A stretch of DNA of 64,000 bases from an uncultured Bifidobacterium sp. (GTDB lineage: Bacteria; Verrucomicrobiota; Verrucomicrobiia; Limisphaerales; JADJPG01): assembly GCA_964491875.1 (NCBI GenBank), contig CAZBIC010000037.1, positions 4,567 through 68,566 on the forward strand. The letters run 5' to 3'. A program made the translations under genes and the position numbers. The notes under the pieces were generated by a model. It worked only from the letters and a program-made list of their open reading frames with translations. It did no database searches and was not told where the DNA came from. Position 1 is the first letter of the stretch. Each line of letters opens with the position of its first letter. Shown here piece after piece: positions 15,315-64,000 of this stretch.

Positions 15315-15316
15315 GA

Positions 15317-15360
15317 CTGATAGTCCATAAGCCGGAAGCGAAAGGTCTATGGACGATCAG
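15317..15360. promoter_or_regulatory. Relic copy of the controller-protein operator (inverted repeat)
   Basis: Arms ctgatagtccata (15317-15329) and tatggacgatcag (15348-15360) are separated by 18 nt. The arms are identical to those at 51474-51517 (in reverse orientation), while the spacer differs. Confidence 0.6.
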
Positions 15361-21357: not shown

Positions 21358-21381
21358 TGTAGATTCACCGACCGCACCATT

Positions 21382-23928
21382 TCATGGCATAACCACACGG
21401 TAGAAACGCGCGGGAAACAGCGGGTTGCCAGCCTCACCCAGCGCATCCACGAATTCGTAGATCCCACTCCCATTCGCAGCGTTGGTCGCAATCGGTGTCC
21501 AGGGGATTGGCGCGGCGAGAGTAGTTGTGGCTTCGAGGATGTAGGTAACGAACGGAATGCCTTGACCGGTGATCTGCAACTTCTCGGGTGTCACAGCGGA
21601 GATGCCGGTAATGTTTGATGCCGCTGCACCGGCGCGCGTCAGGACGACGTCGTTGCCGTTGCCACCGACGTAGGTGATCTGGAACGGGACGCCGTCGGCG
21701 AGGAATGTTGCGCCTTCCGGCAGACCATTGAACGTTCCGCCGATGCCTCCAGGGCCGGTCTTGTTGAGGATGGTGAAAGTGTTTCCAACGGTGGACGCGA
21801 ATCCCAGCGACACTTGCAGGTTGCCACCGAGACTCACTGCGCCGGCGCAAGTGAGTTGGTCGTAGTCCAAGCCTGGCGTTGTTCCGTTGAGCTCCACTGA
21901 AAGCGTGCCCAAGGGCATCAGCACCGAACTCGCCTTAAGATTTCCCGGACTGGCGCCCGGACTCACGGTGCCGTTGACGAACACGCTGACGGCTTGCACC
22001 TGCCCGGTGCCACCAAGGACGCTGCCCGGCCGCACTTGCACCGCAGAACTCGAGCTAAGCACTCCGTGAACGAGGAGCGTGCCGTTGAGGTTCGAAGTGA
22101 CGCCCGAGTAGGTGTTGGTTCCCGTCAGCGTCAGTGTTCCTGTTCCTGATTTCGTGAAGGTTCCGCTTCCGCTAATGACGCCCGCGAAGAGCGTCGAAGA
22201 ATCGTTGCCGCCGGCCTGAAGCGCGCCGCTACCCAACACGACTTTCCCTGTGCCTTCGAGCGAGCCAATCGTGTCGCTGAATCCATTGAGCGCGAGTTCG
22301 CCAGTTTCACGGACAGTCACCGCCACGCTGTCGCCGATTTGGTGCTGCTTGATGTACGACACCGCCTGGCTGCCTACCGGATGGGACGCACCAATGATCA
22401 GCGGCCCCGAGGGAATCACCGGCTGATTCAACACGCCGTCGAGAATCATGTCGCCCTCCAGCACGAGCGTACTGCCAGAGTAGGTGTTGGTGTAGGGAGT
22501 CTTGAGGGTCAGTGTGCCGGGACCATACTTGCGGAAACCAGCCGGGCCGGAGATCTGCCCGACGATGGTGAGCGATTTGTTCGTAGCGATCTGGATATCG
22601 AGATCATCGTTCAACAGCACGGGACCGAGCCAAGAGACCGAACCGTTGCGCGCCTGCAAGAGACCAGCCGGCCCAGGCACGATGAGGTGCTCAGGGACGC
22701 CAATCGCGCCCGGCTCGTCCGTCGCCAAAAACCCGCTGAGCAATCGCGTCTGTCCGTTGGTATTTCCAAGTGCCGAGCCGTGGAGGATCGACAACGTGCC
22801 ACCTTTGATTTCCACGTCGCCGCTGAAGGTGTTCGAAGCCACGAGGACAAGTTCGCCGCGGTTGGTTTTGATCAATGTCGCGGGGGCGGGACCGCTAATC
22901 TGGGCAGTGATGTTGAGCTGAACGCCTTGCGCTACGTCGAAAAGCTGCGGGCCATCGCCTCGGGAGCCGAGCGAAAGACGGCCGGCAATGACTGAATCTT
23001 TGCTGACGTTGATCGGGAGCGACGCGTAGATGCCGCCGTCCACCGCCAACAAGCCCGACCCAGTCGTCACTGTGCCGCCGCGCAACCGGAGTTCGCCGAC
23101 AATTTCGTTCTCGTCGCTCAGTTCCAGACTGCCGGTCGGATATACCGACACCGTAGAGGAGTTGGCAATTTGATTATCCCGATCCAGCACCACGATGTCG
23201 CCGATGAGCGTGCTGACGAAGTCGCCGATCGCGAGATCGCCTGCGATGGCAGTCGCGCTGGTGAACACCAAACCTCCGCCGCCCGCTCCGAGATTGTAGC
23301 GATTCAGCCGCAGGACGCCGCCGCTGACGACGGTCAAGCCTGAGTATGTGTTCGCACCCAGTCCCGTGTAGGAAAGCGTGCCTGAGCCAAGCTTGTAGAC
23401 CCCGCCCGTCCCACTGATGACTCCGGCGATGGTGATATCTCCTGCGCCATCGAATAAGAGCGTGTGTGTAACTAGATGCACGTCGCCGTTGATTGTGAGG
23501 CTCGAAGCCCCAGCAAAGACGTCAATGGACGGACTACCTTCGATCGGCGCGAACCTGACGTCGAAATCGACGATGTGGCTGCCCGCCGGATTGCCGACGT
23601 TCAAGGAATTGGTGATCGTGACTGGATTGCCGCGGAGCCGATAGCTGCCAGCCCCGAAGCAATTAATCACGGAGAACGACGTTCCGGCTGGGAAATTGTT
23701 CGTGTTACTCGTCTTGCGCGCCCCGGTGTCAACGAACTGCAACACATCGCCCGCCACCGGCACGACGTTGCCCTGCCAGTTCGCCGCGGTGGTCCAGTTG
23801 CCGCTCGTGGCTGAAGCGCCGGTCCAGACGCGGATTGCAGGCGATGCTGTCAGCGAAATCAAAGTTAGGACACCGGCGAGGACTGGCCACCGGAGCAATA
23901 ATACGGATTGAGCAGAAAAGCGGTTCAT
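21382..23928 (-). CDS. Autotransporter-associated beta-strand repeat (PATR) surface protein
   Basis: 848 aa with a signal peptide. Many G-T-L-(T/S)-L..(T/S)N-T-Y-S-G repeats (GTGTLTLTGTNTYSGVT, GPGTLTLKTPYTNTYSGST). Confidence 0.8.
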   Translation of the reverse strand: MNRFSAQSVLLLRWPVLAGVLTLISLTASPAIRVWTGASATSGNWTTAANWQGNVVPVAGDVLQFVDTGARKTSNTNNFPAGTSFSVINCFGAGSYRLRGNPVTITNSLNVGNPAGSHIVDFDVRFAPIEGSPSIDVFAGASSLTINGDVHLVTHTLLFDGAGDITIAGVISGTGGVYKLGSGTLSYTGLGANTYSGLTVVSGGVLRLNRYNLGAGGGGLVFTSATAIAGDLAIGDFVSTLIGDIVVLDRDNQIANSSTVSVYPTGSLELSDENEIVGELRLRGGTVTTGSGLLAVDGGIYASLPINVSKDSVIAGRLSLGSRGDGPQLFDVAQGVQLNITAQISGPAPATLIKTNRGELVLVASNTFSGDVEIKGGTLSILHGSALGNTNGQTRLLSGFLATDEPGAIGVPEHLIVPGPAGLLQARNGSVSWLGPVLLNDDLDIQIATNKSLTIVGQISGPAGFRKYGPGTLTLKTPYTNTYSGSTLVLEGDMILDGVLNQPVIPSGPLIIGASHPVGSQAVSYIKQHQIGDSVAVTVRETGELALNGFSDTIGSLEGTGKVVLGSGALQAGGNDSSTLFAGVISGSGTFTKSGTGTLTLTGTNTYSGVTSNLNGTLLVHGVLSSSSAVQVRPGSVLGGTGQVQAVSVFVNGTVSPGASPGNLKASSVLMPLGTLSVELNGTTPGLDYDQLTCAGAVSLGGNLQVSLGFASTVGNTFTILNKTGPGGIGGTFNGLPEGATFLADGVPFQITYVGGNGNDVVLTRAGAAASNITGISAVTPEKLQITGQGIPFVTYILEATTTLAAPIPWTPIATNAANGSGIYEFVDALGEAGNPLFPARFYRVVMP

Positions 23929-50221: not shown

Positions 50222-50299
50222 ATCGATCACCACCAGCCGCCCGCCTTCGTGCTGGAAAACGTGAAATACCTCGTCCGCCACGACCAAGGCCGCGTGTAG
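50222..50299 (+). pseudogene. Fragment of a C5 cytosine DNA methyltransferase (ENV motif region only)
   Basis: Translates to IDHHQPPAFVLENVKYLVRHDQGRV*, which matches the motif V-VI region of C5-MTases (P..fvlENVkgL..hd.G). There is no upstream motif I/IV. It abuts the RAYT-associated repeat. Confidence 0.45.
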
Positions 50300-50925
50300 T
50301 ACCGTAGGTGCGCCATCTTTGTAGAACCAACAGGATAGAGATTTTCAAGCTCCGTCAGGAGCGGCATCCTCTGCGCATGGCCAACACCTACTCCCAAATC
50401 TACATCCAGGTCGTGTTTGCCGTCGAAGGCAGGCAGAATCTCATCAAACCGGAATACAACGACGAGCTGCAGAAATACATCACCGGCATTGTATCCGCTC
50501 AGAGGCACAAACTGATCGCCATAAACAACATGCCGGATCATCTGCACTTGCTTGTTGGCCTGCGACCCGATGCGGCGCTCTCCGAACTTGTGCGAGACAT
50601 CAAGGCGAACTCGTCCCGTTTCATCAGCGAAAAGCGCTGGGTGCCGGGCCGGTTTTCGTGGCAGGAAGGTTTCAGTGCGTTCTCCTATTCGCGTTCGCAA
50701 CTCAGCACGGTGATTCGCTACATCGAGAACCAGCAGAAGCATCATGCCAGGAAATCGTTTCTCGAAGAATACACCGCGCTGCTCGACAAGTTTGAGGTGG
50801 AATACGACCAACGCTACATCTTCAAACCCATCGAGCGGTGAAAGCGTCGGCAGCGCCGTAGGTGCGCCATCTTTGTAGAACCAACGGGATATAAATTCTC
50901 AAGCTCCGTCAGGAGCGACATCTTC
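50299..50925 (+). mobile_element. IS200/IS605-like RAYT unit: Y1 transposase gene flanked by ~70-bp direct copies of its REP-like sequence
   Basis: ccgtaggtgcgccatctttgtagaaccaac.ggata.a.att.tcaagctccgtcaggagcg.catc occurs at 50299-50368 and again at 50856-50925, on either side of the transposase CDS. Confidence 0.65.
50377..50841 (+). CDS. REP-associated tyrosine transposase (RAYT; IS200-type Y1/HUH transposase)
   Basis: MANTYSQIYIQVVFAVEGRQNLI..., the HUH motif in MPDHLHLLVGL, and C-terminal SRSQLSTVIRYIENQQKHH. 154 aa, the typical size. Confidence 0.85.
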   Translation: MANTYSQIYIQVVFAVEGRQNLIKPEYNDELQKYITGIVSAQRHKLIAINNMPDHLHLLVGLRPDAALSELVRDIKANSSRFISEKRWVPGRFSWQEGFSAFSYSRSQLSTVIRYIENQQKHHARKSFLEEYTALLDKFEVEYDQRYIFKPIER

Positions 50926-51450
50926 CGGTGTGATACGGAAGGTGCCGCCCCTACGGGGCTGGGGATTTATTTGGGACGGTTTTTCTACAACGATGCCGCG
51001 CCTACGGCGCTCTCGATGAATCCCCCCTTCTAGCGCCGTAGGTGCGCCATCTCTGTAGAACCAACAGGATAGAGATTCTAAAGCTCCGTCAGGAGCGACA
51101 TCTTCCGGTGTGATACGGAAGGTGCCGCCCCTACGGGGCTGGGGATTTATTTGGGACGGTTTTTCTACAAAGATGCCGCGCCTACGGCGCTCTCGATGAA
51201 TCCCCCCTTGTAGCGCCGTAGGTGCGCCATCTTTGTAGAACCAACGGGATATAAATTCTCAAGTTCCGTCAGGAGCGACATCTTCCGGTGTGCTGCGGAA
51301 GGTACCACCCCTACGGGGCTGGGGATCCATTTTGGACGGTTTTTCTACAAAGATGCCGCGCCTACGGCGCTCTCGATGAATCCCCCTTGTAGCACCGTAG
51401 GTGCGCCATCTTTGTAGAACCAACAGGATATAGATTCTCAAGCTCCGAAA
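50853..51450 (+). repeat. Tandem array (3.3 copies, 180-bp period) of hairpin-rich REP/MITE-like units
   Basis: Unit starts are at 50853, 51033, 51213 and 51392 (partial). Each unit has ~25-bp terminal inverted repeats (gtaggtgcgccatctttgtagaacc / ggtttttctacaaagatgccgcgcctac). Internal hairpins are cttccg..cggaag, gctccgtcaggagc and cccctacgggg. Confidence 0.85.
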
Positions 51451-51473: not shown

Positions 51474-51517
51474 CTGATCGTCCATAGACCTTTCCCGCCC
51501 GGCGTATGGACTATCAG
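51474..51517 (+). promoter_or_regulatory. Candidate controller-protein operator (C-box-like inverted repeat) abutting the HTH1 start
   Basis: Arms ctgatcgtccata (51474-51486) and tatggactatcag (51505-51517) match at 12/13 positions and are separated by an 18-nt spacer. The right arm ends 2 nt before the ATG at 51520. The arms are conserved exactly in the relic locus at 15317-15360. Confidence 0.6.
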
Positions 51518-51519
51518 TC

Positions 51520-51759
51520 ATGCCGAAACGTGACACCGTCCTTGCCGCCCTCGGGCAAAACGTCCGCCGCCGCCGTGAGGCGCGCGACCTGACGCAGGAG
51601 AAGCTGGCTGAGAAAGCCGGGCTCGATCCCACCTACATCTCCGGCATCGAACGCGGGTTGCGGAATCCCGGCATCAAGAACGTTGCGAAACTCGCCAAGG
51701 CTCTCGGCTTCAGCACCGCGGAACTTTGCAAAAGGGGGGTCTCGGCTCGAACATTGTAG
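51520..51759 (+). CDS. XRE-family HTH protein 1 (controller/C-protein-like)
   Basis: 79 aa. HTH_3 pattern: LGQNVRRRREARDLTQEKLAEKAGLDPTYISGIERGLRNPGIKNVAKLAKALG. Confidence 0.85.
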   Translation: MPKRDTVLAALGQNVRRRREARDLTQEKLAEKAGLDPTYISGIERGLRNPGIKNVAKLAKALGFSTAELCKRGVSARTL

Positions 51760-51798
51760 CCGATAGTCCACAGACGAAATGGCATCGTCCTGCACATC

Positions 51799-52035
51799 AT
51801 GCAGAAAATGCCAACAAAGGATCGGATCCTCGTTTCTTTCGGCCAAAATGTCGCTCGAATACGCGACCAGCGGGGGCTTTCCCAAGACAAACTTGCTGAG
51901 AAGGCCGACCTTGATCGCACCTACATCAGTGGCATCGAGCGCGGCGTCCGTAATCCCGGCGTTAAGACGGTCATTCGCATCGCGAAGGCGCTGCATGTCA
52001 CCGTGGGCGAATTGTGCAAGGGGGTGGAAGCGTGA
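51799..52035 (+). CDS. XRE-family HTH protein 2 (tandem paralogue of HTH1)
   Basis: About 60% identical by eye to HTH1 (FGQNVARIRDQRGLSQDKLAEKADLDRTYISGIERGVRNPGVKTVIRIAKAL). By homology the start may be the second Met at 51808. Confidence 0.85.
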   Translation: MQKMPTKDRILVSFGQNVARIRDQRGLSQDKLAEKADLDRTYISGIERGVRNPGVKTVIRIAKALHVTVGELCKGVEA

Positions 52036-53861
52036 ACCGGAGGCAAAAGATCTCCGATGGAGTCATCCGCGAGGAATCCACTTCATATCGGGTTTCATCC
52101 GCTAATTCTCCTTCTTCGCTGCAGTGTAATGTGCCGTCACTCACGTGCATCGATCTGTTCTGCGGCTGTGGCGGGTTCAGCCTCGGAATGCAGCGCGCCG
52201 GGTTCAAGGTTCTCGCCGCCATCGACTTCAACGAAGAAGCGGTGGCAACGTTCAAAGCGAATTTTCCGAAGGAGACGCTGGCGCTCAGCAAGGATCTAAC
52301 GACTTTCACGCCCGACAAGTTGATCGCCAAGCTCCACACGAACCAGGTGGACGTGATTGTCGGAGGACCGCCCTGTCAGGGCTTTAGTACGGTGCGTCAA
52401 GTGGACGCCGCGAATCACGGCTCGCGTGTGAAGCGCGACAAGCGCCGATACCTGTTCCGTTCCTTTTTGGATTATGTAAACGCGTTTCGCCCGCGCGTGT
52501 TTGTCATGGAGAACGTCCTCGGCATCCAGAGTGCCGCCAAGGGCAAGTTCTTTACCCTCGTGCAGTCCGAGGCGCGCAAACTTGGCTATCGGGTTCATTC
52601 CCAAGTCGAGGAATCTTGGAAGCTGGGCGTGCCGCAGAAACGCCGCCGTCAGCTCGTCATCGGCGTCCGAAATGATGTGCCGGGATATTTCCCCGGCGAA
52701 CTGGGTCCGGCAAAGCGCGCCTTCAGAGCGCCGGTCTCCGACCCGGCGCGTTCGTGTTCTGACTCGACCTCCGGCACTACTCCAGCCGCTCCGACTCTCT
52801 GGGATGCCATCGGAGATTTGCCGCCGCTCGTCGCAGGAGCGGGCGAAGAAGAACGCGATTACGATTTGAAACTTCGCGCGGAGCATCTTACAAGGCGCGA
52901 CCAAAGAGCCACACACTACCTCGAACAGGTGCTCGAAGTCCATCACACTACCAAGCTCACCGCGCACCGCGCCCGCCCCCACAGCGAGCGTGACCTGCGC
53001 GACTTCGCCCGGATGCTGGAGGGTGAAACCGGCGACCAAACCATCGCTCGCGGTGAAGAGATGGAGTTTCCCTATAAACGAAGCGTGTTTCTCGACCGCT
53101 ACACCCGCCAGCACCGCGAACGGCTCTGCTCGACGATTGTGGCGCATCTCGCGAAGGACGGCCTGATGTTCATCCATCCTACGCAAAACCGTTCGCTCAC
53201 GCCGCGCGAGGCCGCGCGCGTGCAAAGTTTCCCGGACTGGTTTCAGTTTCCCGTGGCCCGGACGCATCAGTTCCGCATCATCGGCAACGCCGTGCCACCG
53301 CTGGTGGCCGAGGCTGTGGGCGAGGAGTTGACGCGATTTCTCGCAGCACCGCTCCAGGACATGGCGAATCGTCGTGGACACGGTATTGATTCGGAACACA
53401 CCGGGTCGGAGACCGGCGCTCCGTTGCCCGCCACCCGTTCCGCAGCCGCGCATCAGTTGGAATCCCTCGCCCGCCTCGACCGGCGGCAGCTCCGCGCCCT
53501 GTCCACCAGGGAATTTCTCTGCGGCTGGCGCGCTCTCCTGTTTCTCTTTCCCGACCTTCATCCCGACAGCGCACAGGATCACGGGGGTGACTCGGAAATC
53601 ATCAGTGCCGACCAGCTTGCCTTGCCCGGTTACGAGGAACTGCTTGCAAAGAGATTTGTCCGCAGCGGCTGGCCCGTCGCTCTGGAAGCCATCGGCGTCG
53701 AAGCCTGGCGGCGGGTTGATGCCCGAGAGCTCACGGACAAGGAATTTTACTGCGCGGAGGCGCAGCGAGCAGGGTTGGCGACATCAAAGTCAGCGGTTTC
53801 GACAGGGGGGACAAATCATGGCAGCAGAATGGATATTCAGGGAACTCCGTCCGGGAGATAA
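52032..53861 (+). CDS. C5 cytosine-specific DNA methyltransferase with ~190-aa C-terminal extension
   Basis: Motif I DLFCGCGGFSLG, motif IV GGPPCQGFS, VMENV, QKRRR, RSLTPREAARVQSFPD and motif X GNAVPPLVAEAVG. The GTG at 52032 makes a GTGA overlap with the HTH2 stop (alternative GTG at 52014). Confidence 0.92.
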   Translation: MNRRQKISDGVIREESTSYRVSSANSPSSLQCNVPSLTCIDLFCGCGGFSLGMQRAGFKVLAAIDFNEEAVATFKANFPKETLALSKDLTTFTPDKLIAKLHTNQVDVIVGGPPCQGFSTVRQVDAANHGSRVKRDKRRYLFRSFLDYVNAFRPRVFVMENVLGIQSAAKGKFFTLVQSEARKLGYRVHSQVEESWKLGVPQKRRRQLVIGVRNDVPGYFPGELGPAKRAFRAPVSDPARSCSDSTSGTTPAAPTLWDAIGDLPPLVAGAGEEERDYDLKLRAEHLTRRDQRATHYLEQVLEVHHTTKLTAHRARPHSERDLRDFARMLEGETGDQTIARGEEMEFPYKRSVFLDRYTRQHRERLCSTIVAHLAKDGLMFIHPTQNRSLTPREAARVQSFPDWFQFPVARTHQFRIIGNAVPPLVAEAVGEELTRFLAAPLQDMANRRGHGIDSEHTGSETGAPLPATRSAAAHQLESLARLDRRQLRALSTREFLCGWRALLFLFPDLHPDSAQDHGGDSEIISADQLALPGYEELLAKRFVRSGWPVALEAIGVEAWRRVDARELTDKEFYCAEAQRAGLATSKSAVSTGGTNHGSRMDIQGTPSGR

Positions 53862-55722
53862 AGACCGACAACCAACACAGGGAGAGTTCTTCGCAACGGA
53901 CGCAATCAAGTCCGTTGCAGAGGCGTTGGTCCGCGAAAGTGTTCAAAACACTCTTGATGCCGGACTCAAAATTAATGGCCATCCGGTTCGTGTGCGTTTT
54001 CATCTAGCGAAGGGGAATCACGCGCTCGCAGCCACGGACGTTCAACGTTACTTCAAAACTGGCTGGCCGCATTTTGAAGCAAAGGGGAACGGCTTGGATA
54101 ACATTCCGTCAGCCCATGATGCTTGTCCATTCTTGGTGGTCGAAGACTTTGGAACAACTGGTCTCATCGGTGACATCAAGCAATGGCGGCATATTCCGGG
54201 AGACAAAAACCCGTTCTATTTCTTCTTCCGCACCGAAGGCCGTTCGGGAAAGGGCGAGGAAGACCGTGGGCGCTGGGGTGTAGGCAAGTATGTGTTCCCG
54301 CGTTCGAGTGAGATCAACTCTTTTCTGGCTTTGACGGTCCGCAACGACGACAAGAAACGCTTTCTCATGGGGCAGGCAGTATTGAAATCGCACACAGTCG
54401 GAACGAAATACTTCACACCAGACGGAGACTTTGGAAACGATGATGGAGAGGGGTTTGTTCTGCCGGAGGACGACAAAAGCGTACTTGACCGCTTTTCAAA
54501 AGATTTCGGCCTGAAACGAAAGAACGAGCCGGGATTGTCGGTTGTTGTGCCTTGGGTGGATGACACAATCAACCTTGATGGGCTTCTGCAAGCAGTGATT
54601 GAAGACTACTTTCACCCCATTCTTGCGGGCGAATTGGTTGTAGATGTCTCAAATGGAACGAAGGAGTTGGAAGTCTCAGCCGATTCGCTTGGCGAGATCT
54701 GCAAACAGCTTGGCGCCGAGTTCGAAGCCAAGATGCTTCCAGTATTGAAGCTCTCCAAATGGGCACGAGGGCTATCGGATGATGCATTCGTAACTCTCAA
54801 GCCCGCGAATCCCGACCGGCCCAAGTGGGAGGCGGCGCTTGTTCCGGTTGAATTGATACCGAGTCTCCGTGAGAAATTCCGAGCCGGCGAAGCACTGGCT
54901 GTAAAAGTTCCTTTGACTGTCCGCGAAAAGAGAGGTGACGCACGTGAATCGTTCTTCAAAATCTTCCTCATGCACGACGGGAGTGAAGAGGGAAATCCGC
55001 TTTTCGTTCGTGATGGGATCATCATCTCAGACGTTCGCGGAAACTGGGTCGCGGGTGTTCGATCTATTGTCGTCATTGATCACGGGCCGCTCGCCAAACT
55101 TCTAGGTGATTCGGAGAACCCTGCTCACACGCAGTGGCAAAAAGACCGCGAGCACTTTCGACACAAATACACCTACGGAAAATCCTACATCGATTTCGTA
55201 ACTCAAAGCGTCTCGATGTTTGTTCGCTGCTTGAACGAATCAGATGAGCAGCCTGACAAGGATTTGTTACGGGAGATTTTTTCGATTCCCAAGAAGCCTG
55301 AATCGAACGACCCAAAGGAAAAATCCAAGAGGCGTAAGCGTAATAAGGGTGAGGTTATCAATCCCGAACCAGCGGTTGAACCCAAGAAACGACGTTTCAC
55401 GCTCTCAAAGGTCGCTGGAGGGTTCACCGTAACACGCGGACAACCGGATGCCTTAACACCAGCCGCCTTGGACATCTCGGTGGCCTACGACCGGCGCCGC
55501 GGTAATCCGCTTAAGAAGTACATCACTGCTGATTTCAGAATTAACGAATCTCCAATTAAGATCGAATGTGTTGGCGCAAAACCAGCAGAACGGCAGAAGA
55601 ACCGACTGGTAGTGAATATCACTCAGCCAGATTTCAGCGTCACTGTGTCTGGTTTCGACGAGAACCGGGATCTGTTCGTCGATGTGAAAGCGAAGGAGGA
55701 GATCAATGATCCGAAGACTTAA
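53818..55722 (+). CDS. GHKL-superfamily ATPase (MORC/sacsin/MutL-like N-terminal Bergerat fold), 634 aa
   Basis: N-box ESVQNTLDA (53935-53961), G1 box EDFGTTG (54142-54162) and G2 box GRWGVGK (54268-54288). The ATG at 53818 is preceded by agggggg and overlaps the MTase 3' end by 44 nt. The C-terminal ~400 aa are unrecognised and include a K/R-rich patch (KEKSKRRKRNKG). Confidence 0.8.
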   Translation: MAAEWIFRELRPGDKDRQPTQGEFFATDAIKSVAEALVRESVQNTLDAGLKINGHPVRVRFHLAKGNHALAATDVQRYFKTGWPHFEAKGNGLDNIPSAHDACPFLVVEDFGTTGLIGDIKQWRHIPGDKNPFYFFFRTEGRSGKGEEDRGRWGVGKYVFPRSSEINSFLALTVRNDDKKRFLMGQAVLKSHTVGTKYFTPDGDFGNDDGEGFVLPEDDKSVLDRFSKDFGLKRKNEPGLSVVVPWVDDTINLDGLLQAVIEDYFHPILAGELVVDVSNGTKELEVSADSLGEICKQLGAEFEAKMLPVLKLSKWARGLSDDAFVTLKPANPDRPKWEAALVPVELIPSLREKFRAGEALAVKVPLTVREKRGDARESFFKIFLMHDGSEEGNPLFVRDGIIISDVRGNWVAGVRSIVVIDHGPLAKLLGDSENPAHTQWQKDREHFRHKYTYGKSYIDFVTQSVSMFVRCLNESDEQPDKDLLREIFSIPKKPESNDPKEKSKRRKRNKGEVINPEPAVEPKKRRFTLSKVAGGFTVTRGQPDALTPAALDISVAYDRRRGNPLKKYITADFRINESPIKIECVGAKPAERQKNRLVVNITQPDFSVTVSGFDENRDLFVDVKAKEEINDPKT

Positions 55723-56470
55723 CTATACTGGGCGAATAAAGATTCATCGTTCGGACATAAAGCTCGCAACGCGGGAAGCGAACGGCGCGTTCAGCTTTGA
55801 CGCCAGCCTGAAGCTTATTGACTACGAGTTACCCGCAGAAGCGCTCGTGTTTGTTGAGGCGTATCGTCAGACAACGTGGATGCGATTTCCGTTCGGCACG
55901 GTAGCAAACCTTCAACCGCCAGCGAACCGCGAGTTGAACGAGTTTGAATCCGTTGAACACATCAAGTTTCGGGTCAAGGTCACCCAGGCGCTTGATGAGC
56001 ACATTCTGCTCGCCGTCGCTGATCGCATTCCGCTGGCGCTGCCGAGCGAGGACGCGGACTGTGAAAGCATTCTGCCAGTTCATCCGAGGGAACTGGGCGA
56101 TGAATTGTGGCAGGTAGAGATGGTCGATGAGCCATGTCTTCTGGTTAACAAGTCTGCGACGCCAGACTGGCGACAGCTCACGCAATCGCCATTGTTCGTT
56201 TCGCTCGTTTATCCCGCCGTTTTGCGCCAGATACTCACGCATGTTCTCTCCGAGGGTCACCGGGACACCGATGATGAGAATGAATGGCGTTCCAAATGGC
56301 TCCGCTTCGCCACGCTCATGCCCGGAGTCGATCCGGATATTCCAGGGAAGGACGACGGCGAGGACGCGGCCATGCGCTGGATGGAAGATGCCGTGGCGGG
56401 GTTCGCGAGGAAGCTGGCGTTGAAGGAGAAATTTTCCGCCGTGTGGCAGCAACCAAAAGGGGTCCAATGA
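55706..56470 (+). CDS. Hypothetical protein (254 aa), operon partner of the GHKL ATPase
   Basis: Strong SD aaggagga lies 5 nt upstream of the ATG. The gene overlaps the ATPase gene by 17 nt. Composition is balanced and no motif is recognised. Confidence 0.7.
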   Translation: MIRRLNYTGRIKIHRSDIKLATREANGAFSFDASLKLIDYELPAEALVFVEAYRQTTWMRFPFGTVANLQPPANRELNEFESVEHIKFRVKVTQALDEHILLAVADRIPLALPSEDADCESILPVHPRELGDELWQVEMVDEPCLLVNKSATPDWRQLTQSPLFVSLVYPAVLRQILTHVLSEGHRDTDDENEWRSKWLRFATLMPGVDPDIPGKDDGEDAAMRWMEDAVAGFARKLALKEKFSAVWQQPKGVQ

Positions 56471-57183
56471 AAGTTGCGCGCTTGAACGAGGGCGGCATTT
56501 CCACCTTTGCCGGCTGGCTGGAAACTCTGAAACAGGGTGGTTCGGTGCAGGCTCCCGTTTCGCTGCTGACCAGCCCTGAAGCCATCGAGGCTCTGCCTGT
56601 AACAGCGGATGTTGAACTGAGAGCTTTTACGAATCGCTTCGAGGCGGCGGAATATCTATTCCATCGCTTCACCGAAGCCGGACTGACTGACGTGGACCGA
56701 GATCGTGGGTTGTGGGCGTGGCTTTCGCTCTTTTACTTTGATTCCGTCTGCCCGGCGGGAAAAGGCGGCGTTCGCAAGCCCGGCGCACTAGCGCGTCATG
56801 TTCCTGAACCTGGAAATTTCCAACGGTATTACCGGCACCTGCTCGGCGGGCCGTATCGCATCTACCGCGCGCATCGGGATGATCCGAAGCGGGCGATGGC
56901 ATTGTTGTGCCAGCCATTGAACACCCCCGGAGAAGTGGTCGAGCAGATTGCATCTCGCCAGGAACTCGTGACGAATCGCGGGATCATGGAACTGGCCACT
57001 CGCCTGTACTTCAATCCTGACACAAAGCTGAAGAAGCATGGTGTCGAAGGCAAAGGCGGCGGCACTCCTCGCCGACTTTCTGATGTTTTAGATCAATTTG
57101 ATCTGACATGGGACTTGTATGCTTCCACCGGAGAGGAACTCGCGACAGTAATGCCCAAGGAGTTCGCCAGATTTCTTTCGTAG
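56467..57183 (+). CDS. Hypothetical protein (238 aa), operon partner of the GHKL ATPase
   Basis: ATGA start/stop overlap with the preceding gene and an SD-like aagggg upstream. Begins MKVARLNEGG. No motif recognised. The track's longer ORF (56284) overlaps the previous gene out of frame. Confidence 0.65.
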   Translation: MKVARLNEGGISTFAGWLETLKQGGSVQAPVSLLTSPEAIEALPVTADVELRAFTNRFEAAEYLFHRFTEAGLTDVDRDRGLWAWLSLFYFDSVCPAGKGGVRKPGALARHVPEPGNFQRYYRHLLGGPYRIYRAHRDDPKRAMALLCQPLNTPGEVVEQIASRQELVTNRGIMELATRLYFNPDTKLKKHGVEGKGGGTPRRLSDVLDQFDLTWDLYASTGEELATVMPKEFARFLS

Positions 57184-57322
57184 CCAAGCTCGTGAGATTC
57201 CTGTCTGCGAGTGATTCCCACACGCCGGGTCGGAGACCGGAGCTCCGTCGGAATCCGTGTGCATTCCGCCTTCACACGTTTCGGCGTGGCGGGCGGTCTG
57301 CATCCGTGGTTAAAACACTCCC

Positions 57323-57811
57323 ATGCCTGACGTGTTCACCAAGACCAAGCGCAGCGATGTGATGTCGCGCATCCGCTCGCGTGGGAACAAGGACACGGAG
57401 CTGGCGCTGGCGAAGGTGTTCCGCGCGGAGGGAATTACGGGGTGGAGAAGACATGTGAAGTTGAGAGCCGGGGAGTTGAGTGTTGAGAGATCGAATGCGC
57501 GATCCTCTCAACACTCAACTCAAACACTCTCTCAACTGATCGTCCGTCCGGATTTCGTCTTTCCAAAACTGCGCCTGGCGGTGTTCGTGGACGGGTGTTT
57601 CTGGCACGCGTGTCCGCTGCACGCGACCAAGCCGAAGGGGAATGCGGCGTTCTGGCGGAGGAAATTCGCCACGAACAAGGCGCGGGATCGACTGGTGACG
57701 CGCACGTTGCGGCGCGACGGATGGCGCGTGCTCCGCATCTGGGAACACGAGTTAAAGAAACCTGCCCGCGTGATCGCGAAGATGCGCAAGGCTTTGGCTC
57801 CTGCGCAGTGA
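57323..57811 (+). CDS. vsr: Very-short-patch repair endonuclease (Vsr) carrying an in-frame palindromic insertion
   Basis: TKRSDVMSRIRSRGNKDTEL, RPDFVFPKLRLAVFVDGCFWHACPLH and DGWRVLRIWEHEL. An extra ~25 aa (AGELSVERSNARSSQHSTQTLSQL) lies between the N-terminal helix region and the PDF motif. Confidence 0.88.
   Translation: MPDVFTKTKRSDVMSRIRSRGNKDTELALAKVFRAEGITGWRRHVKLRAGELSVERSNARSSQHSTQTLSQLIVRPDFVFPKLRLAVFVDGCFWHACPLHATKPKGNAAFWRRKFATNKARDRLVTRTLRRDGWRVLRIWEHELKKPARVIAKMRKALAPAQ
57473..57521. repeat. Perfect 17-bp-stem palindrome inside vsr
   Basis: gagttgagtgttgagag (57473-57489) is the exact reverse complement of ctctcaacactcaactc (57505-57521), with a 15-nt loop. Imperfect outer arms are agttgagag (57459-57467) and ctctcaact (57529-57537). 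Confidence 0.9.
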
Positions 57812-58830: not shown

Positions 58831-61800
58831 ATGAGTTCAAGGAGTTTGAGATCATCTTCTGAGCCACAGTCGGAGACATCGACACTAGGAGTAAACTCCA
58901 TTTCTTTAAGCTGGCTGAACGCCATTGGGGTCTTCCTCAGCTTTCTCCTCCTCTACTCCAAGCCCGCCCACGCAGGAGTTTCGACCGTGCTGGCATGGGG
59001 CGCGAATTATGATGGTCAAACGAATGTGCCCGTCGGGCTAACGAACGTCGTTGCGATCTCGGCTGGCAACAACTTTGCCGTAGCTCTCAGAATAGATGGC
59101 ACGATCACGGCCTGGGGCGACAGCAGTGCCGCGAACGATACGAATTACCTAGCGAATGTCGTGGCAATTTCTGCCGGGCTGGGTAGCGCTTTGAATTTGA
59201 GAGCCGATGGATCCATCGTAGCATCATTCAGCCAAGCAACAACGAATCAATTATTGTATCCGAGCTCGAATAAAATCATTGGCATCGCCGAAGGTTTATT
59301 CCTACTCAATGATCAAACGTTAACCGGCTCCTACGGCAATTCCTTCGAAAACTTCAATGTCATTACATTGCCAAATGGTCCTCTTTTCGGAACTTCAATA
59401 GCTGGAAAGATTGAGGCAGGCGCCGCCGTATCTCCGAACGGCACTATTTCTCTCTGGACCACAATAGTCACCGGCCAAACCATCCCCGACTACAGCGTGC
59501 CGCTCGATTTGACGAATGCAGTCGAAGTAGATCTCGGCAGAGAGTATGGGATTGTCCGAACTGCGGACCAGCGGGTTCGCGTTTGGCGATTTGGCGGGGG
59601 CAACTCGGAGATTACAACCAACCTTCCGACCGGCTTAACCAATATCATTCAGATATCAGCGGGCGACTATCACGCGCTGGCACTAAAATCCGACGGCAGG
59701 GTAATGACTTGGGGCTCGACTTGGGATGGAGTTGGGAACGTTCCGACCACAGCAACCAATGTGCTCGCCGTAGCTGCCGGAGGCGGTTTCAGCGTCGCGC
59801 TCACCGGGAGCGGACCACCCGAGGTCAATATTCTCAATGCAACGACGAACGAAGTAAGCGCAGGCATAACCAGCATTCTCCGGGGCGGGTTTCTGGGGGA
59901 ACCACCCTTGAGCATTCAATGGCGAAAAAATGGAGCCGACATCGTAGGAGCGACCAATGCAACGCTTTGGCTGACCAACTCCCAGATGAAAGATACGGGT
60001 TCATATTCTCTCTTCGCCAGCAACCGCCTTGGAACAGCGACCAGCCGAGAAGTTGCTGTGGTCGTTACACCAGCTCCGCCAGCGTTCGTTAGCGAGCCCA
60101 TCTCGCAACTCGCCACGCTGATGAATCGACACGAACTTTCAGCAACTGTGGCGGGATCTGAGCCAATGCATTATCAATGGCATTTCAACGGCAAGTCGAT
60201 TCCGGGAGCAACAAACGCGGTCCTCCGGCTTGATCCCCTCTATTACTCTGATTCAGGAGATTATTCGGTCGTGGTGACCAACGCGCTGGGCACCGCAACA
60301 AGCAGTAACGCGGCACTCACCTTAACTTCAGTCGTGCTCGCGAACAATGGGCAAACCGATGTCCTGCCAATGCAAATCGGATTAACGAATGCAGTTTCAC
60401 TCGTGGCAAACTCCCTGCGAGGCAATGTGCTAGCTCTCGATGGGACGGCTCAGGACTGGGACCTTTATTCCCGAGGTTACCCATATGTGGCATCACTCAC
60501 CGTCTCGAATCTCTTGGAGTTAGGAGACGGTTGGACCGGATCGGCAATCAGTCTTGAAAACCATGTCGTGTCTCTCTATACGTCCGACGTAACAAAGTAC
60601 GAGATTCCATATGGGCTCACCAACGCGATTTGGATCACGGCAGGCCTAAACACGCGTTTCGCATTGTTAAGCGACGGACGATTGACGGGCTGGTTCGTCA
60701 CCCAATTCGGAACGGCAGTGCCACTTACGATTCCGACTGAAGTTTCCAACGTAGTCGATTTCTCATTTGGATTTGACCATGGCATCGCCATTCGCGCAGA
60801 CCGATCCGTTGTAACGTGGGGTGATCTGGATTTTGGCAACTTGAATGTCCCTGCCAGTGTGTCGAACGTGGTTGCCGTTGCGGCCGGAGATAATTTCAGC
60901 GTGGCTGTGCGAGAGGATGGATCGGTCGTATCGTGGGGACGCGGTACAATGACGCTATTCGGCGGAGGAGAAACCAATGTACCGGCCGGCCTCTCCAACG
61001 TGGTCTCTGTCAAAGCCGGTCGCGTCCACACAGCGGCCCTTAAGCGGGATGGCACTGTGGCTGTTTGGGGATTCGGCGTGGAGCGAACATCTAACGCGTT
61101 CTCCAAAGTTAAGAATGTTGCGAAAATCGCCGCTGGAGAATTGCAGACCGCGGCTCTGTTCTGGGAAAACCCACCTCTCATTCGTCAATTGACTCCTCGC
61201 GAAAGCACCATCTTCTCTGGTGGTCCGGCGGTGCTGCGCGTTGATGTTTTAGGGCCGGCCGATCTCAGATTCCAATGGCAGTTGCACGGCACAAACATTC
61301 CCGGAGCCATCTACAAATTCTTGTTCGTTGAGAACATCCGCGCGGAAGACTCCGATGGCTATAGCTTTATTGCCAGCAGTCCAAGTGGAGCCTCGGTCGG
61401 CGAATCTCTCCGCATTCGCGTTGAGAATGCGCCTCCATTCGTTGTGACACAGCCAGTAGACGCTGGAACCAACGTGACCCGGTCGGCAACATTTACCGTC
61501 GCCGCTGACGGCGCGAAGCCTCTCCATTATCAGTGGATGTACGAAGGTGTAGACATCCCTGGCGCAACGATGTCGTCACTAACGGTAGGACCGCTGACCC
61601 ATCTGAACGCAGGCCACTACTCGGTCCGCGTTACGAACCCATTCGGAAGTACGATTAGCTCCAACGCAGCCCTAAAGGTATGGTCGGTTGTGGGATGGGG
61701 AAGAACGTTTCCCTATGATTATGGACAGAGTAACGCTGGCCCGGCCAGTTCTGATGCATTCGCTATTTCTGCCGGCGAGTTTCACAGTGCGGCGATCAAA

Positions 61801-64000
61801 TTGGACGGCACGGTCACCGCTTGGGGGAATATGACAAATGTTCCTGCCGGTTTGAGCAATGTTGTGGAATTGCATGCATGTGGGACGTTCGGTCAGCCCG
61901 GCAGTTACAATCTTGCCTTACTGTCGGACGGGACAATCGGTGGTTGGAATAACGACACCATCCGTGATTTCCGGATCCTCTCGTTTGTCAGCAATGCAGT
62001 CGGTTTGGTAAGCCGAGATGGATATAATGTTGCGATTCAGGCTGACGGTCGCGTAAAGGCATGGGCGGGATTCACGGGCCCTGTGGCCACCAATCTACCA
62101 AATTCGGCAACCAACATCACGAGAATCGCGTTCAACGTGGGCTCGCACTATCTTGCGCTGCGCCGTGACGGCACGGTTGTGACATGGGGTTCAACTTCGC
62201 CGATTTTGACTAATCTGCCGGCCGGTCTAACCAACATCGTCGCCGTCGCAGCGGGACCGTCCTACAGCTGTGCATTACGAGACGACGGTACTGTCATCAG
62301 CTGGGGAAGCCCTATGCCCAATGCGTCGGCAATCCTGCCAACACTCACAAATGTCCTGTCGATCGCCGGTGGCGAATGGCACGTCGTCGCCCTTAGAAAT
62401 AACGGGACGGTTGTTTCGTGGGGTGAAAGCCCCCACGGACAAACCAATGTTCCTCCAGGATTGAACAACATCGTACAGGTTGGTGCGGGGCGAGACTATA
62501 GCTGGGCACTCAATGGGAGTGGAAAGCTCTTCGTGTGGGGGGACAATTCAGGTGGTCAGAACAATGTTCCTCCGGGACTCACCAACGTGATCTCGGTGTC
62601 CCACGGAGTTGACCATTGCCTTGCGTTGACCGGGCCCAGTGAGCCTCGTATTCGGTCCGTGACCAGCAGTAGATCACAGCCGTACAGTGGCGAGATTACT
62701 TTCCTGCGAGCTGATGCAATCGGAATGCCGCCGTTGAGCTACCAATGGCATCTCAACGGAATACCCATCCACGGGGAAAACAATCCATCACTTCTGCTAC
62801 CCAATCCCGACTCCCAACACTCCGGAAGTTACTCTGTAACGGTGACTAATCTCCATGGAACGGCTTCTGCAACTATCGATTTGGCCGTATTGGAAAATCC
62901 GCCGATCATTACCATCCCACCCGCCCCAGTGTGGACATTCTTCACAAGTAACGCCGTATTCTCAACCAAAAGCAAAGGTTCTCAGCCCATTCTCTATCAG
63001 TGGTTCTATGGAGATAAGCCCATCGAAACAGCCACGAACTCTACGCTGATTATTACCAATATCCACCATCACATGACAAACCTTGTGAAAGTGATGTTAA
63101 GCAACGCCTTTGGGGTTGTCTTCAGCGAGGAAGTCGGCATCAAGGTGTCACCGATCATTGCATGGGGCGCAAACAATTACGGCCAGACCCTTCCACCTCC
63201 CGCCACTGCGAGCAACGTTGTCGGATTGGCTGCAGGTTTATATCATGGAGTTGCCCTGAAGGATGACGGTAGTTTGGTTTCGTGGGGTTTAACAACGAAT
63301 TACTTTCCACTCGGCGTTTCAAATGTTGCGCAGATATCCGTGAGTGACTCACACACGGCTGTTCTTCAGCGCGATGGGGCTGTGAAGATCTGGGTGACTC
63401 CTAGTGATTCCCTCGGCCATCAGATCTCGACTGTGCCACCGACCGCTACCAATCTAGTTGAAGTCGTTGCGGGATACTCATTCACAATGGCGCTGCGCAG
63501 GGACGGAACTGTAGTTGCATGGGGACGCACATCAGGTGGCACAAATGTTCCACCGGGCATCTCGAATGTTGTAGCCATCGCCGCGCCACGTTCCCAAGGC
63601 ACCTATGGCCTCGCATTGCAACAGGACGGCACAGTGGTGGCTTGGGGCTATCCTTCAGACCCAACAAACGTGCCCACAAATCTCAGGGACGTTACTGCCA
63701 TAGCTTCGACCAGGCTCACGGCATTCGCGGTGAAAAGCGATGGCACAGTCGTCGGATGGCGGTCAACCGGTCTAGTTCCAATCCCCCAGGCATGCACGAA
63801 TGTTCATGCCATAGCAGCCGGCGATCAGCTAATTCTGGCGCTGCGCCGTGACGGCACACTCATCTCATTTTCTGATTCGTTTGGAACCCTGTATCCGTTC
63901 ATCCCAAACGGAATTTCGAACATAGTTGATATCGCCGTTGGTGGCTCGTTCAGCATGGCTCACATGTCGGAGGCCCCTCCATTCATCCGCCGCCTAACTA
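58831..64000 (+). CDS. Giant secreted RCC1-repeat / immunoglobulin-domain modular protein, 3' end outside window
   Basis: This frame is open from the ATG at 58831 to the window end. It is missing from the supplied ORF track because it has no stop in the window. Signal peptide WLNAIGVFLSFLLLYSKPAHA. Blocks of RCC1-type blades (VLAWGANYDGQTNVP.GLTNVVAISAG..FAVAL..DGT) alternate with pairs of I-set-like Ig domains (Y.W..NG..I.GATN..L.......D.G.YS..V.N..G...S). GC content is visibly lower than the backbone. Confidence 0.85.
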   Translation, partial: MSSRSLRSSSEPQSETSTLGVNSISLSWLNAIGVFLSFLLLYSKPAHAGVSTVLAWGANYDGQTNVPVGLTNVVAISAGNNFAVALRIDGTITAWGDSSAANDTNYLANVVAISAGLGSALNLRADGSIVASFSQATTNQLLYPSSNKIIGIAEGLFLLNDQTLTGSYGNSFENFNVITLPNGPLFGTSIAGKIEAGAAVSPNGTISLWTTIVTGQTIPDYSVPLDLTNAVEVDLGREYGIVRTADQRVRVWRFGGGNSEITTNLPTGLTNIIQISAGDYHALALKSDGRVMTWGSTWDGVGNVPTTATNVLAVAAGGGFSVALTGSGPPEVNILNATTNEVSAGITSILRGGFLGEPPLSIQWRKNGADIVGATNATLWLTNSQMKDTGSYSLFASNRLGTATSREVAVVVTPAPPAFVSEPISQLATLMNRHELSATVAGSEPMHYQWHFNGKSIPGATNAVLRLDPLYYSDSGDYSVVVTNALGTATSSNAALTLTSVVLANNGQTDVLPMQIGLTNAVSLVANSLRGNVLALDGTAQDWDLYSRGYPYVASLTVSNLLELGDGWTGSAISLENHVVSLYTSDVTKYEIPYGLTNAIWITAGLNTRFALLSDGRLTGWFVTQFGTAVPLTIPTEVSNVVDFSFGFDHGIAIRADRSVVTWGDLDFGNLNVPASVSNVVAVAAGDNFSVAVREDGSVVSWGRGTMTLFGGGETNVPAGLSNVVSVKAGRVHTAALKRDGTVAVWGFGVERTSNAFSKVKNVAKIAAGELQTAALFWENPPLIRQLTPRESTIFSGGPAVLRVDVLGPADLRFQWQLHGTNIPGAIYKFLFVENIRAEDSDGYSFIASSPSGASVGESLRIRVENAPPFVVTQPVDAGTNVTRSATFTVAADGAKPLHYQWMYEGVDIPGATMSSLTVGPLTHLNAGHYSVRVTNPFGSTISSNAALKVWSVVGWGRTFPYDYGQSNAGPASSDAFAISAGEFHSAAIKLDGTVTAWGNMTNVPAGLSNVVELHACGTFGQPGSYNLALLSDGTIGGWNNDTIRDFRILSFVSNAVGLVSRDGYNVAIQADGRVKAWAGFTGPVATNLPNSATNITRIAFNVGSHYLALRRDGTVVTWGSTSPILTNLPAGLTNIVAVAAGPSYSCALRDDGTVISWGSPMPNASAILPTLTNVLSIAGGEWHVVALRNNGTVVSWGESPHGQTNVPPGLNNIVQVGAGRDYSWALNGSGKLFVWGDNSGGQNNVPPGLTNVISVSHGVDHCLALTGPSEPRIRSVTSSRSQPYSGEITFLRADAIGMPPLSYQWHLNGIPIHGENNPSLLLPNPDSQHSGSYSVTVTNLHGTASATIDLAVLENPPIITIPPAPVWTFFTSNAVFSTKSKGSQPILYQWFYGDKPIETATNSTLIITNIHHHMTNLVKVMLSNAFGVVFSEEVGIKVSPIIAWGANNYGQTLPPPATASNVVGLAAGLYHGVALKDDGSLVSWGLTTNYFPLGVSNVAQISVSDSHTAVLQRDGAVKIWVTPSDSLGHQISTVPPTATNLVEVVAGYSFTMALRRDGTVVAWGRTSGGTNVPPGISNVVAIAAPRSQGTYGLALQQDGTVVAWGYPSDPTNVPTNLRDVTAIASTRLTAFAVKSDGTVVGWRSTGLVPIPQACTNVHAIAAGDQLILALRRDGTLISFSDSFGTLYPFIPNGISNIVDIAVGGSFSMAHMSEAPPFIRRLT

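Follow-up and report, generated by a model that had tools for sequence, protein, structure and literature searches.

The locus analyzed here lies in a 64,000-nucleotide stretch of DNA (the window) from contig CAZBIC010000037.1 of an uncultured bacterium of the Verrucomicrobiota. It consists of seven genes encoding two controller-type helix-turn-helix (HTH) proteins, a C5 cytosine DNA methyltransferase (MTase), a GHKL ATPase, two proteins without known relatives termed X and Y, and a Vsr-type mismatch endonuclease (Table 1). A preliminary description of this DNA, made from the letters alone, had read the genes as a co-directional operon, and all seven open reading frames (ORFs) were indeed found on the + strand. 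The junctions it listed are also present. The HTH2 stop and the MTase start share GTGA at 52032-52035, X and Y share ATGA at 56467-56470, the MTase and GHKL genes overlap by 44 nt and GHKL and X by 17 nt, and a gap of 139 nt precedes vsr. The MTase frame is open from 52014, and the start that yields 609 amino acids is the one also used in public gene calls. Pfam and PADLOC family matches to controller proteins, a C5 MTase and Vsr bear out the proposed resemblance to a restriction-modification (R-M) framework. The GHKL, X and Y genes, referred to below as the trio, are translationally coupled, co-inherited and co-evolving.

Table 1. Features of the seven-gene locus and its surroundings in the window.
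Feature	Position	Strand	Description	Evidence
Putative operator	51474-51519	+	C-box-like; 13-bp inverted repeat with 18-bp spacer	Read from sequence
HTH1	51520-51759	+	79-aa XRE/controller-type helix-turn-helix protein	Pfam HTH_3 9.3e-19; PADLOC Control_protein 4.3e-18
Operator-like half-site GATAGTCCA	51762-51770	+	Upstream of HTH2; reverse complement of 51507-51515	9/9 complementary
HTH2	51799-52035	+	78-aa controller-type helix-turn-helix protein	Pfam HTH_3 1.6e-17; PADLOC Control_protein 3e-20
MTase	52032-53861	+	C5 cytosine DNA methyltransferase, 609 aa, GTG start	Pfam DNA_methylase 2.5e-63; TIGR00675 2.8e-56
GHKL	53818-55722	+	Predicted GHKL (Bergerat-fold) ATPase, 634 aa	AlphaFold2 model, Foldseek, invariant motifs; PADLOC PDC-M33A 4.7e-20
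X	55706-56470	+	254-aa acidic protein, obligate partner of GHKL	Without match in Pfam, NCBIfam, PADLOC and PDB
Y	56467-57183	+	238-aa mostly helical protein	AlphaFold2 pLDDT 89.5; no Foldseek neighbour
vsr	57323-57811	+	Vsr-type T:G mismatch endonuclease, 162 aa	Pfam Vsr 1.6e-16; TIGR00632 1.9e-27
Palindromic hairpin inside vsr	57459-57537	+	Arms 57473-57489 / 57505-57521	Perfect 17-nt arms
IS200-like Y1 transposase, RAYT-type	50308-50841		REP-like sequences on its flanks (region 50299-51447)	Y1_Tnp E 2e-24
Tandem array, 180-bp unit	50852-51447		3.3 copies, downstream of the Y1 transposase	94% identity
Decayed cassette copy	14988-15360	-	Operator, HTH1 pseudogene and last ~38 codons of vsr; clean internal deletion	tblastn

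The 634-amino-acid protein escapes existing sequence models. It matched no Pfam or NCBIfam family, with neither HATPase_c_3 nor HATPase_c found at E<=0.1, and sequence and profile searches against PDB sequences returned nothing meaningful. Histidine-kinase ATP-binding domains gave a weak profile match to the N-box region at chance level (E about 2). No sequence signal for MutL, MutS or MutH was seen in the Pfam and NCBIfam scans, nor for MutL in the PDB sequence search. An AlphaFold2 model was built from 33 homologues (predicted local distance difference test, pLDDT, 82; predicted template modelling score, pTM, 0.70) and compared with the PDB using Foldseek. With probability 1.0 and E values from 2e-9 to 1e-6, the model matched Topo VI-B (E 2e-9), ATPase fragments of GyrB/ParE, Hsp90 and the ATPase module of SMCHD1. 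The alignments to the Topo VI-B, GyrB and SMCHD1 modules span about 480-530 columns, and MutL was not among the top 50 structural matches. Three motifs are invariant across the family: the N-box E40-x3-N44-x2-D47, the G1 motif D110-F-G-T-T-G115 and the G2/lid motif G151-R-W-G-V-G-K157. The ATPase domain is followed by a transducer/S5 domain and then by an invariant loop, G430-D-S-E433-N-P-A-H437-T-Q-W. Residues 487-525 form a disordered Lys/Arg-rich linker of pI 10.3, which leads into a basic, beta-rich C-terminal domain. The model thus gives this protein a GHKL plus transducer fold with invariant ATP-binding motifs. The earlier assignment to the GHKL ATPases was right at the level of the fold, although the protein lies outside the Pfam GHKL models.

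Neither X nor Y matched Pfam or NCBIfam, any PADLOC model at E<=0.1, or PDB sequences in a meaningful way. As had been noted from the sequence, no nuclease of the PD-(D/E)XK, HNH, GIY-YIG or PLD type and no helicase was recognized in either protein by profile searches, or in Y by Foldseek. X belongs to a family of 2,084 representative clusters (E<=1e-3, 50% identity). Nearly all of its members are about 250 amino acids long, there are no informative fusions among the best 150 listed, and the proteins are acidic with a median pI of 5.0. Y was modelled with a pTM of 0.88 (pLDDT in Table 1) as a mostly helical protein with a short N-terminal strand. Foldseek found no structural neighbour for it; the lowest E value was 6 in the PDB and 1.5 in BFVD. 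Invariant residues of Y are D79, W83, W85, R103, R110, Y121-Y122-R123-H124, H136, E159, R202-R203, D212, W215 and D216. On conservation alone Y is the first candidate for a catalytic subunit, with X and the GHKL protein's C-terminal domain as alternatives.

X and Y begin alike. X starts with MIRRLNYTGR and Y with MK-x-RRLN-x-x-G (55706-55744 and 56467-56505), giving the consensus M-x-(x)-R-R-L-N-x-x-G. The motif is retained by distant homologues in Rhizobium and forms a short edge strand in the Y model, and it may be a docking strand or peptide common to both proteins. Homology between X and Y was rejected, as only this 13-residue motif is shared (hhalign probability 2%). Several other assignments were also considered and discarded. 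The motifs PGDVVEQLA ... GAGGKG ... RRLxD had hinted at an HhH-GPD DNA glycosylase in Y, but the confident model matched no glycosylase in the PDB or BFVD by Foldseek. The top matches of the GHKL model to Topo VI-B raised the possibility that X and Y are a split Topo VI-A/Spo11 (Toprim plus 5Y-CAP). This was not supported, since Foldseek matched the Y model to no Topo VI-A structure and the one Asp conserved in X is D106, with no DxD motif. A cytosine deaminase in X or Y was dismissed because the invariant residues hold no HxE...PCxxC pattern. Precomputed marks on some Y homologues pointed to DUF6339, which reached only E 0.16 on rescanning and is unmentioned in the literature searched. PDB profile matches of X, Y and the GHKL protein were at chance level (for example, designed DPBB proteins at E 0.5), and a profile match to an ACT-domain protein (E 5e-5 over 70 residues) was unsupported by the fold search.

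To survey the trio, one genome per species was scanned, and the six-frame ORFs of the loci recovered were searched with GHKL, X and Y profiles together with the MTase, Vsr and HTH proteins of the window. The 79 loci recovered come from Verrucomicrobiota, Bacteroidota, Acidobacteriota, Chloroflexota, Planctomycetota, Nitrospirota, Gemmatimonadota, Desulfobacterota, Gamma- and Betaproteobacteria, Actinobacteria and Hydrogenedentota. The trio is spread patchily over at least 12 phyla, and the GHKL family alone comprises more than 1,600 clusters at 90% identity. Among 69 non-duplicate GHKL loci with enough downstream sequence, X is present at 53 and both X and Y at 45. Where X and Y are present and the flanks are long enough (n=27), a C5 MTase occurs at 24 loci, Vsr at 21 and both at 20. 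In contrast, 0/15 GHKL loci without X and Y have a C5 MTase, Vsr or both within equal flanks. A diverged trio on Rhizobium leguminosarum plasmid pRlX5, with 25% identity in GHKL and X' and Y' proteins recognized at hhalign probability 98%, has a C5 MTase 2.6 kb downstream. These counts, together with the pRlX5 trio, indicate that the association of trio and methylase is specific and old. The preliminary description had proposed that its candidate system would fail if GHKL, X and Y were not co-inherited with each other or with methylases; the contrast of 24/27 with 0/15 and the co-evolution described below go the other way.

The order of the genes is variable. M-GHKL-X-Y-V is found in a metagenome-assembled genome (MAG) of the Flavobacteriales, GHKL-X-Y-M-V on a 4.2-Mb metagenomic contig (L001), and at other loci M and V are convergent. 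A C5 MTase upstream and Vsr downstream of the trio are found in the window and at L002, L011, L019 and L081. Controller-type HTH genes were detected at only three other loci. Thus the seven-gene C-C-M-GHKL-X-Y-V architecture emphasized earlier is not conserved as an order; what is conserved is GHKL-X-Y with a C5 MTase and usually Vsr. No further gene, such as a helicase or nuclease, recurs among 142 flanking ORFs from 46 loci. The flanks hold a mixture of housekeeping genes with some PIN, HNH, Mrr, AAA_5, DUF1016 and transposase genes. At L005/L016, L017, L019, L022 and L079 the GHKL, X or Y gene is split into two ORFs, and the L005 methylase is also truncated; the split trio genes reflect either decay of the system or errors of MAG assembly. 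L029, on a contig of 1.07 Mb, has a second GHKL homologue (20982-21890, - strand) some 9 kb away from the first.

Within the trio, pairwise similarities are strongly correlated (Spearman 0.80 for GHKL-X, 0.70 for GHKL-Y and 0.74 for X-Y). Correlations of the trio with the MTase are 0.38-0.49 (GHKL-MTase 0.44) and with Vsr 0.25-0.28 (GHKL-Vsr 0.27). The MTases of trio loci fall into five clusters. L008 is 64%, 70% and 72% identical to the window in GHKL, X and Y, respectively, but its MTase is only 29% identical. By these sequence comparisons the methylase has been exchanged among at least five lineages while the trio was conserved. For many of the MTases the alignment is confined to the catalytic N-terminal half; the regions for target recognition therefore differ, and their specificities are probably not the same.

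The MTase of the window has a DNA_methylase match over residues 44-440 with motif X at residue 424, and its PDB relatives include M.HaeIII, M.HhaI and DNMT1. Motif X is followed by a C-terminal tail of about 180 amino acids (window 53361-53861, residues ~445-609) that matches no known domain. The tail is kept only in the MTase clade encoded directly upstream of the GHKL gene, to which the MTase of the window belongs, and is absent from all other MTases. Its confinement to this clade rules out the tail as a universal adaptor to the trio. The Vsr protein aligns to E. coli Vsr (1vsr) at 1.2e-12 and retains the RPDF Asp and the GCFWH motif.

Several known or predicted systems resemble this locus. 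MORC/paraMORC GHKL plus S5 ATPases were predicted in R-M operons with cytosine methylases and Vsr-family nucleases, operons that usually also hold SF2 helicases or RE-fold, HNH or HKD nucleases (Iyer et al. 2008, PMC2292703). The window locus shares with them the GHKL plus S5/transducer architecture, intact ATP motifs, cytosine methylase and Vsr neighbours and a patchy, mobile distribution. Directly behind its S5 domain, the invariant E433-x-x-x-H437 is similar to the ExxxH motif at the end of the paraMORC2 S5 domain (PMC2292703). Unlike those operons, the window locus holds neither an SF2 helicase nor a nuclease of the RE-fold, HNH or HKD type, and none recurs in the flanking ORFs. X and Y are absent from the description of 2008 (PMC2292703), and the GHKL protein of the window lacks the HATPase_c_3/HATPase_c match. 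Whereas paraMORC2 is found mainly in cyanobacteria and Gram-positives (PMC2292703), the window family is found in Verrucomicrobiota, Bacteroidota, Acidobacteriota, Chloroflexota, Planctomycetota and others.

A second resemblance is to clusters of a C5 MTase, a GHKL "HK-like" protein HEF_HK (PF19191), an "RR-like" Response_reg_2 protein (PF19192) and Vsr, with examples in Akkermansia and Rhizobium (Bellieny-Rabelo et al. 2021, PMC8011034). There too a methylase lies upstream, the GHKL protein is soluble and has a tightly linked partner, and Vsr follows immediately downstream. However, PF19191 and PF19192 match none of GHKL, X and Y and, at E<=1, none of 29 X and 30 Y homologues. The window has two partner genes rather than one, and the Y model is helical, not a (beta-alpha)5 receiver.

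A third resemblance is to PADLOC PDC-M33. The GHKL protein matches PDC-M33A at 4.7e-20 over residues 23-303 (model 24-289 of 627), which covers the ATPase half only. The model length of 627 is close to that of the GHKL protein, and an equally good match is given by the distant homologue from Rhizobium. Neither X nor Y hits a PADLOC model at E<=0.1, and Rhizobium X' and Y' hit none at 1e-3. PDC systems are unpublished phage-defence candidates (PMC11811056). No paper mentioning PDC-M33 by name was found in the literature searched. To our knowledge, a multi-gene anti-phage system with a MutL/MORC-type GHKL ATPase, often accompanied by a cytosine methylase, is the only experimentally validated example of this general kind. 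Compared with classical type II 5-methylcytosine (m5C) R-M systems that have a C protein and Vsr, the window shares the controller HTH genes, the palindromic operator at the start of the operon, the C5 methylase and Vsr. It differs in having no recognizable restriction endonuclease; in its place is a candidate effector of three subunits that is predicted to depend on ATP. This effector is 40-70% identical across at least five methylase lineages, which sequence-specific type II endonucleases are not. The literature searched holds no description of the trio, whether as a GHKL protein with Vsr and a methylase or in phage defence. The feature is real and conserved well beyond its source genome. 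The claim that the system is undescribed holds for the trio itself, but a system of this kind had already been predicted by comparative genomics (PMC2292703, PMC8011034), and PDC-M33 is a listed candidate.

We propose that the locus is a mobile, m5C-based, ATP-dependent restriction-like module whose effector is a GHKL-X-Y complex rather than a classical restriction endonuclease, a reading to which we give an even chance. The HTH proteins would regulate their own genes and set the timing of expression when the module enters a new host, and the methylase would mark host DNA as self with m5C. The GHKL protein may dimerize on ATP in the manner of GyrB, Topo VI-B, MutL and MORC, and could clamp or scan DNA by means of the transducer, the basic linker and the likewise basic C-terminal domain. 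X and Y would be its obligate subunits. Since the trio pairs with five or more unrelated methylase lineages, what it senses is probably m5C as such, present or absent, and not one particular sequence. The trio probably has no sequence specificity matching that of its methylase, and recognition of m5C is the most economical hypothesis. The modification-sensing effectors of phosphorothioate systems are thought to work comparably. Unmarked DNA would then be nicked, cleaved or trapped by the effector. The main task of Vsr would be to repair T:G mismatches arising by m5C deamination, thereby limiting the mutational cost of the modification. Signs of mobility and cost are the frameshifted trio genes at several loci, the deleted second copy in the window and the variable genes in the flanks. 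In a more specific version, the GHKL clamp scans DNA, Y (a new fold) and X read m5C as self in any sequence context, and unmarked DNA is destroyed or immobilized through a new catalytic center or without a nuclease. We hold this version as doubtful, a minority view.

A number of observations weigh against a restriction-like module. Searches of GHKL, X and Y with Pfam, NCBIfam, PADLOC and PDB profiles, and of GHKL and Y with Foldseek, revealed neither a nuclease nor a helicase, nor any of the known DNA-reader domains. The acidity of X (pI about 5) is unlike that of a DNA-binding protein. The genes in the flanks surveyed above are not clearly enriched for defence genes. Carriage by phages or proviruses was also considered and rejected, as no relatives were found among 50,697 phage records or in IMG/VR. 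Within 10 kb of three of the 27 intact trios (L029, L060 and L082) there is no C5 methylase. This means either that an adjacent methylase is not needed to keep the trio from being lethal or that the methylase is located elsewhere. At L029 the trio is bracketed by ISL3 and IS66 transposases and the adjacent methylase has been lost; the L060 trio adjoins an Mrr gene and the L082 trio a DEAD/MrfA-type helicase gene. In Planctomycetota, GHKL paralogues occur alone (L042, L045-L051, L053, L054, L063, L066, L070, L073, L074) or with X only (L035, L055, L057-L059, L061, L062, L065, L071), lacking Y, methylase and Vsr. Their MAGs often carry two paralogues, one solo and one with X. The solo gene lies divergent beside a conserved xylose-isomerase-like TIM-barrel gene at 10 of 14 other loci. 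This synteny suggests vertical inheritance and possibly a role other than defence within the family.

Could the trio serve repair instead? The genes might form a self-contained machine for very-short-patch repair, with GHKL in the role of MutL, X and Y as mismatch-recognition or loading factors, and no restriction; a mobile Dcm would thereby carry a full T:G repair pathway of its own. The GHKL plus S5 architecture is MutL-like in outline, Vsr accompanies the trio at 21/27 loci and is sometimes translationally coupled to Y (L002), and E. coli MutL stimulates Vsr (PMC2292703). Independence from methylase specificity is likewise what one would expect of a mismatch-repair accessory. We nevertheless consider this explanation unlikely. 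Intact M-GHKL-X-Y loci without Vsr exist (L006, L036 and L079, with flanks of up to 8-10 kb), GHKL-Vsr co-evolution is weak, and the top structural matches are Topo VI-B and GyrB with no sequence signal of MutL, MutS or MutH. The controller proteins and the deleted second copy also suit a toxic function better. That no nuclease domain was found in the trio would fit an epigenetic clamp resembling MORC, which would compact, entrap or silence DNA according to its m5C state and so act in xenogeneic silencing or plasmid exclusion, with no cutting of DNA. The structural matches include SMCHD1 and GHKL proteins of the Hsp90 type, the linker of the GHKL protein is basic and disordered and its C-terminal domain is basic too, and in Planctomycetes solo GHKL paralogues are stably retained. 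In eukaryotes, MORCs act on methylated chromatin, and Iyer et al. derived them from bacterial systems of this type (PMC2292703). Against a clamp, the invariant acidic, His and Arg residues of X and Y could form an unrecognized active site, the controller proteins suggest acute toxicity, and the literature searched offers no bacterial precedent for the mechanism. Its probability is accordingly low in our judgment.

The gene order of C5 MTase, GHKL protein, small partner and Vsr has been read elsewhere as signalling (PMC8011034), and by the same logic the GHKL protein of the window could be a kinase-like cytoplasmic sensor that controls the methylase or a host response without acting on DNA directly. 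The weak N-box matches to histidine kinases would fit such a sensor. It is made very improbable by the fold search, which groups the GHKL protein with DNA-manipulating GHKL plus transducer ATPases, by the Y model, which is not a receiver domain, and by the absence of any HisKA/DHp, REC, HEF_HK or Response_reg_2 match in GHKL, X, Y and 29-30 homologues of each. Equally remote in our estimate is an incidental association, in which GHKL-X-Y would be an independent selfish or toxin-antitoxin-like cassette that tends to insert beside Dcm-Vsr pairs but is not functionally coupled to them. Methylase lineages are exchangeable, gene order varies and three trios have no methylase, all as such a cassette would predict. 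Yet for a gene family that occurs about once in each genome, 24/27 versus 0/15 far exceeds what chance would give, and the association persists at 25% GHKL identity in Rhizobium. One clade, moreover, combines the 44-nt MTase/GHKL overlap with a clade-specific MTase tail.

The GHKL-X-Y family is large and extends over a dozen phyla or more; neither Pfam nor NCBIfam captures it, and the literature searched does not mention it. If the trio restricts DNA, the system would be R-M-like with an effector that can move from one methylase to another of different specificity, and such portability points to direct sensing of m5C. Since no known nuclease fold was found in the effector, it would act either through a new fold for catalysis or reading (Y) or without nucleolysis. 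If m5C sensing is true, the system would be the cytosine-methylation counterpart of phosphorothioate-sensing systems and an experimentally tractable bacterial model for the coupling of MORC-type ATPases to DNA methylation. That coupling was proposed in 2008 from comparative genomics, and the literature searched contains no experiment that tests it. If the trio is instead a repair accessory, mobile Dcm genes bring with them more damage control than Vsr alone. With its compact, widespread core and a subunit (Y) of no known fold, the trio is a good candidate for experiments.

The controller genes are preceded by a putative operator with arms CTGATCGTCCATA (51474-51486) and TATGGACTATCAG (51505-51517). 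GACTATCAGTC lies within the right arm, and the operator directly abuts the HTH1 ATG. The C.PvuII group has GACT-N3-AGTC as its C-box core, and the C.PvuII gene is expressed from leaderless transcripts. By analogy with this C-protein paradigm the operator would have a regulatory function. HTH1 and HTH2 are 62% identical and thus a tandem duplicate. Public annotations of identical contigs show, in place of these two genes, an antisense ORF of 160 amino acids (51514-51996, - strand; 114-596 of contig L085). In view of the HTH_3 scores of HTH1 and HTH2, this ORF is an annotation artefact, and the controller genes of the cassette are consequently missing from existing annotations. A scan of the region for sigma-70 promoters found none, but such a scan is uninformative for this organism.

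Signs of mobility surround the operon. The transposase/REP (repetitive extragenic palindromic) cluster noted previously is present upstream in the form of a Y1_Tnp ORF and a tandem array (Table 1). Each 180-bp repeat unit of the array holds inverted GCGCCGTAGG(T/C)GCG motifs. The decayed paralogous copy was recovered by tblastn. Its HTH1 pseudogene (15314-15102, 82% amino acid identity) has two in-frame stops, one directly after the start (ATG TAG...) and an internal TAG, and is fused to the end of vsr, where residues 124-159 of Vsr align at 15113-15000. Both operator arms are unchanged (15315-15360) despite the decay of the coding sequence. The low GC content ascribed to the core genes applies to the trio (GHKL 51%, X 56%, Y 56%; third-position GC, GC3, 55-65%), whereas MTase, HTH1 and vsr are like the backbone genes (GC 60-63%, GC3 73-77%). 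The low-GC trio, the neighbouring RAYT/REP elements, the deleted second copy and the patchy spread all support the mobility of the candidate defence cassette. Downstream, a giant ORF (58981-64000, + strand, running off the window) encodes RCC1/RLD and immunoglobulin-like repeats and extends to at least 2,093 amino acids on the identical contig L085. It has a low, trio-like GC content (54%, GC3 56%), so the low-GC stretch reaches beyond the cassette.

The vsr gene contains a palindromic hairpin whose arms are unique to this site within the window. Folded as DNA it has an energy of -27.8 kcal/mol (z = -6.3). The hairpin is in frame and adds about 25 amino acids in a loop, an insertion that alignment shows to be absent from most homologous Vsr proteins. 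In the Vsr protein of L015 this position is also occupied by an insertion, which is similar in length but has another sequence.

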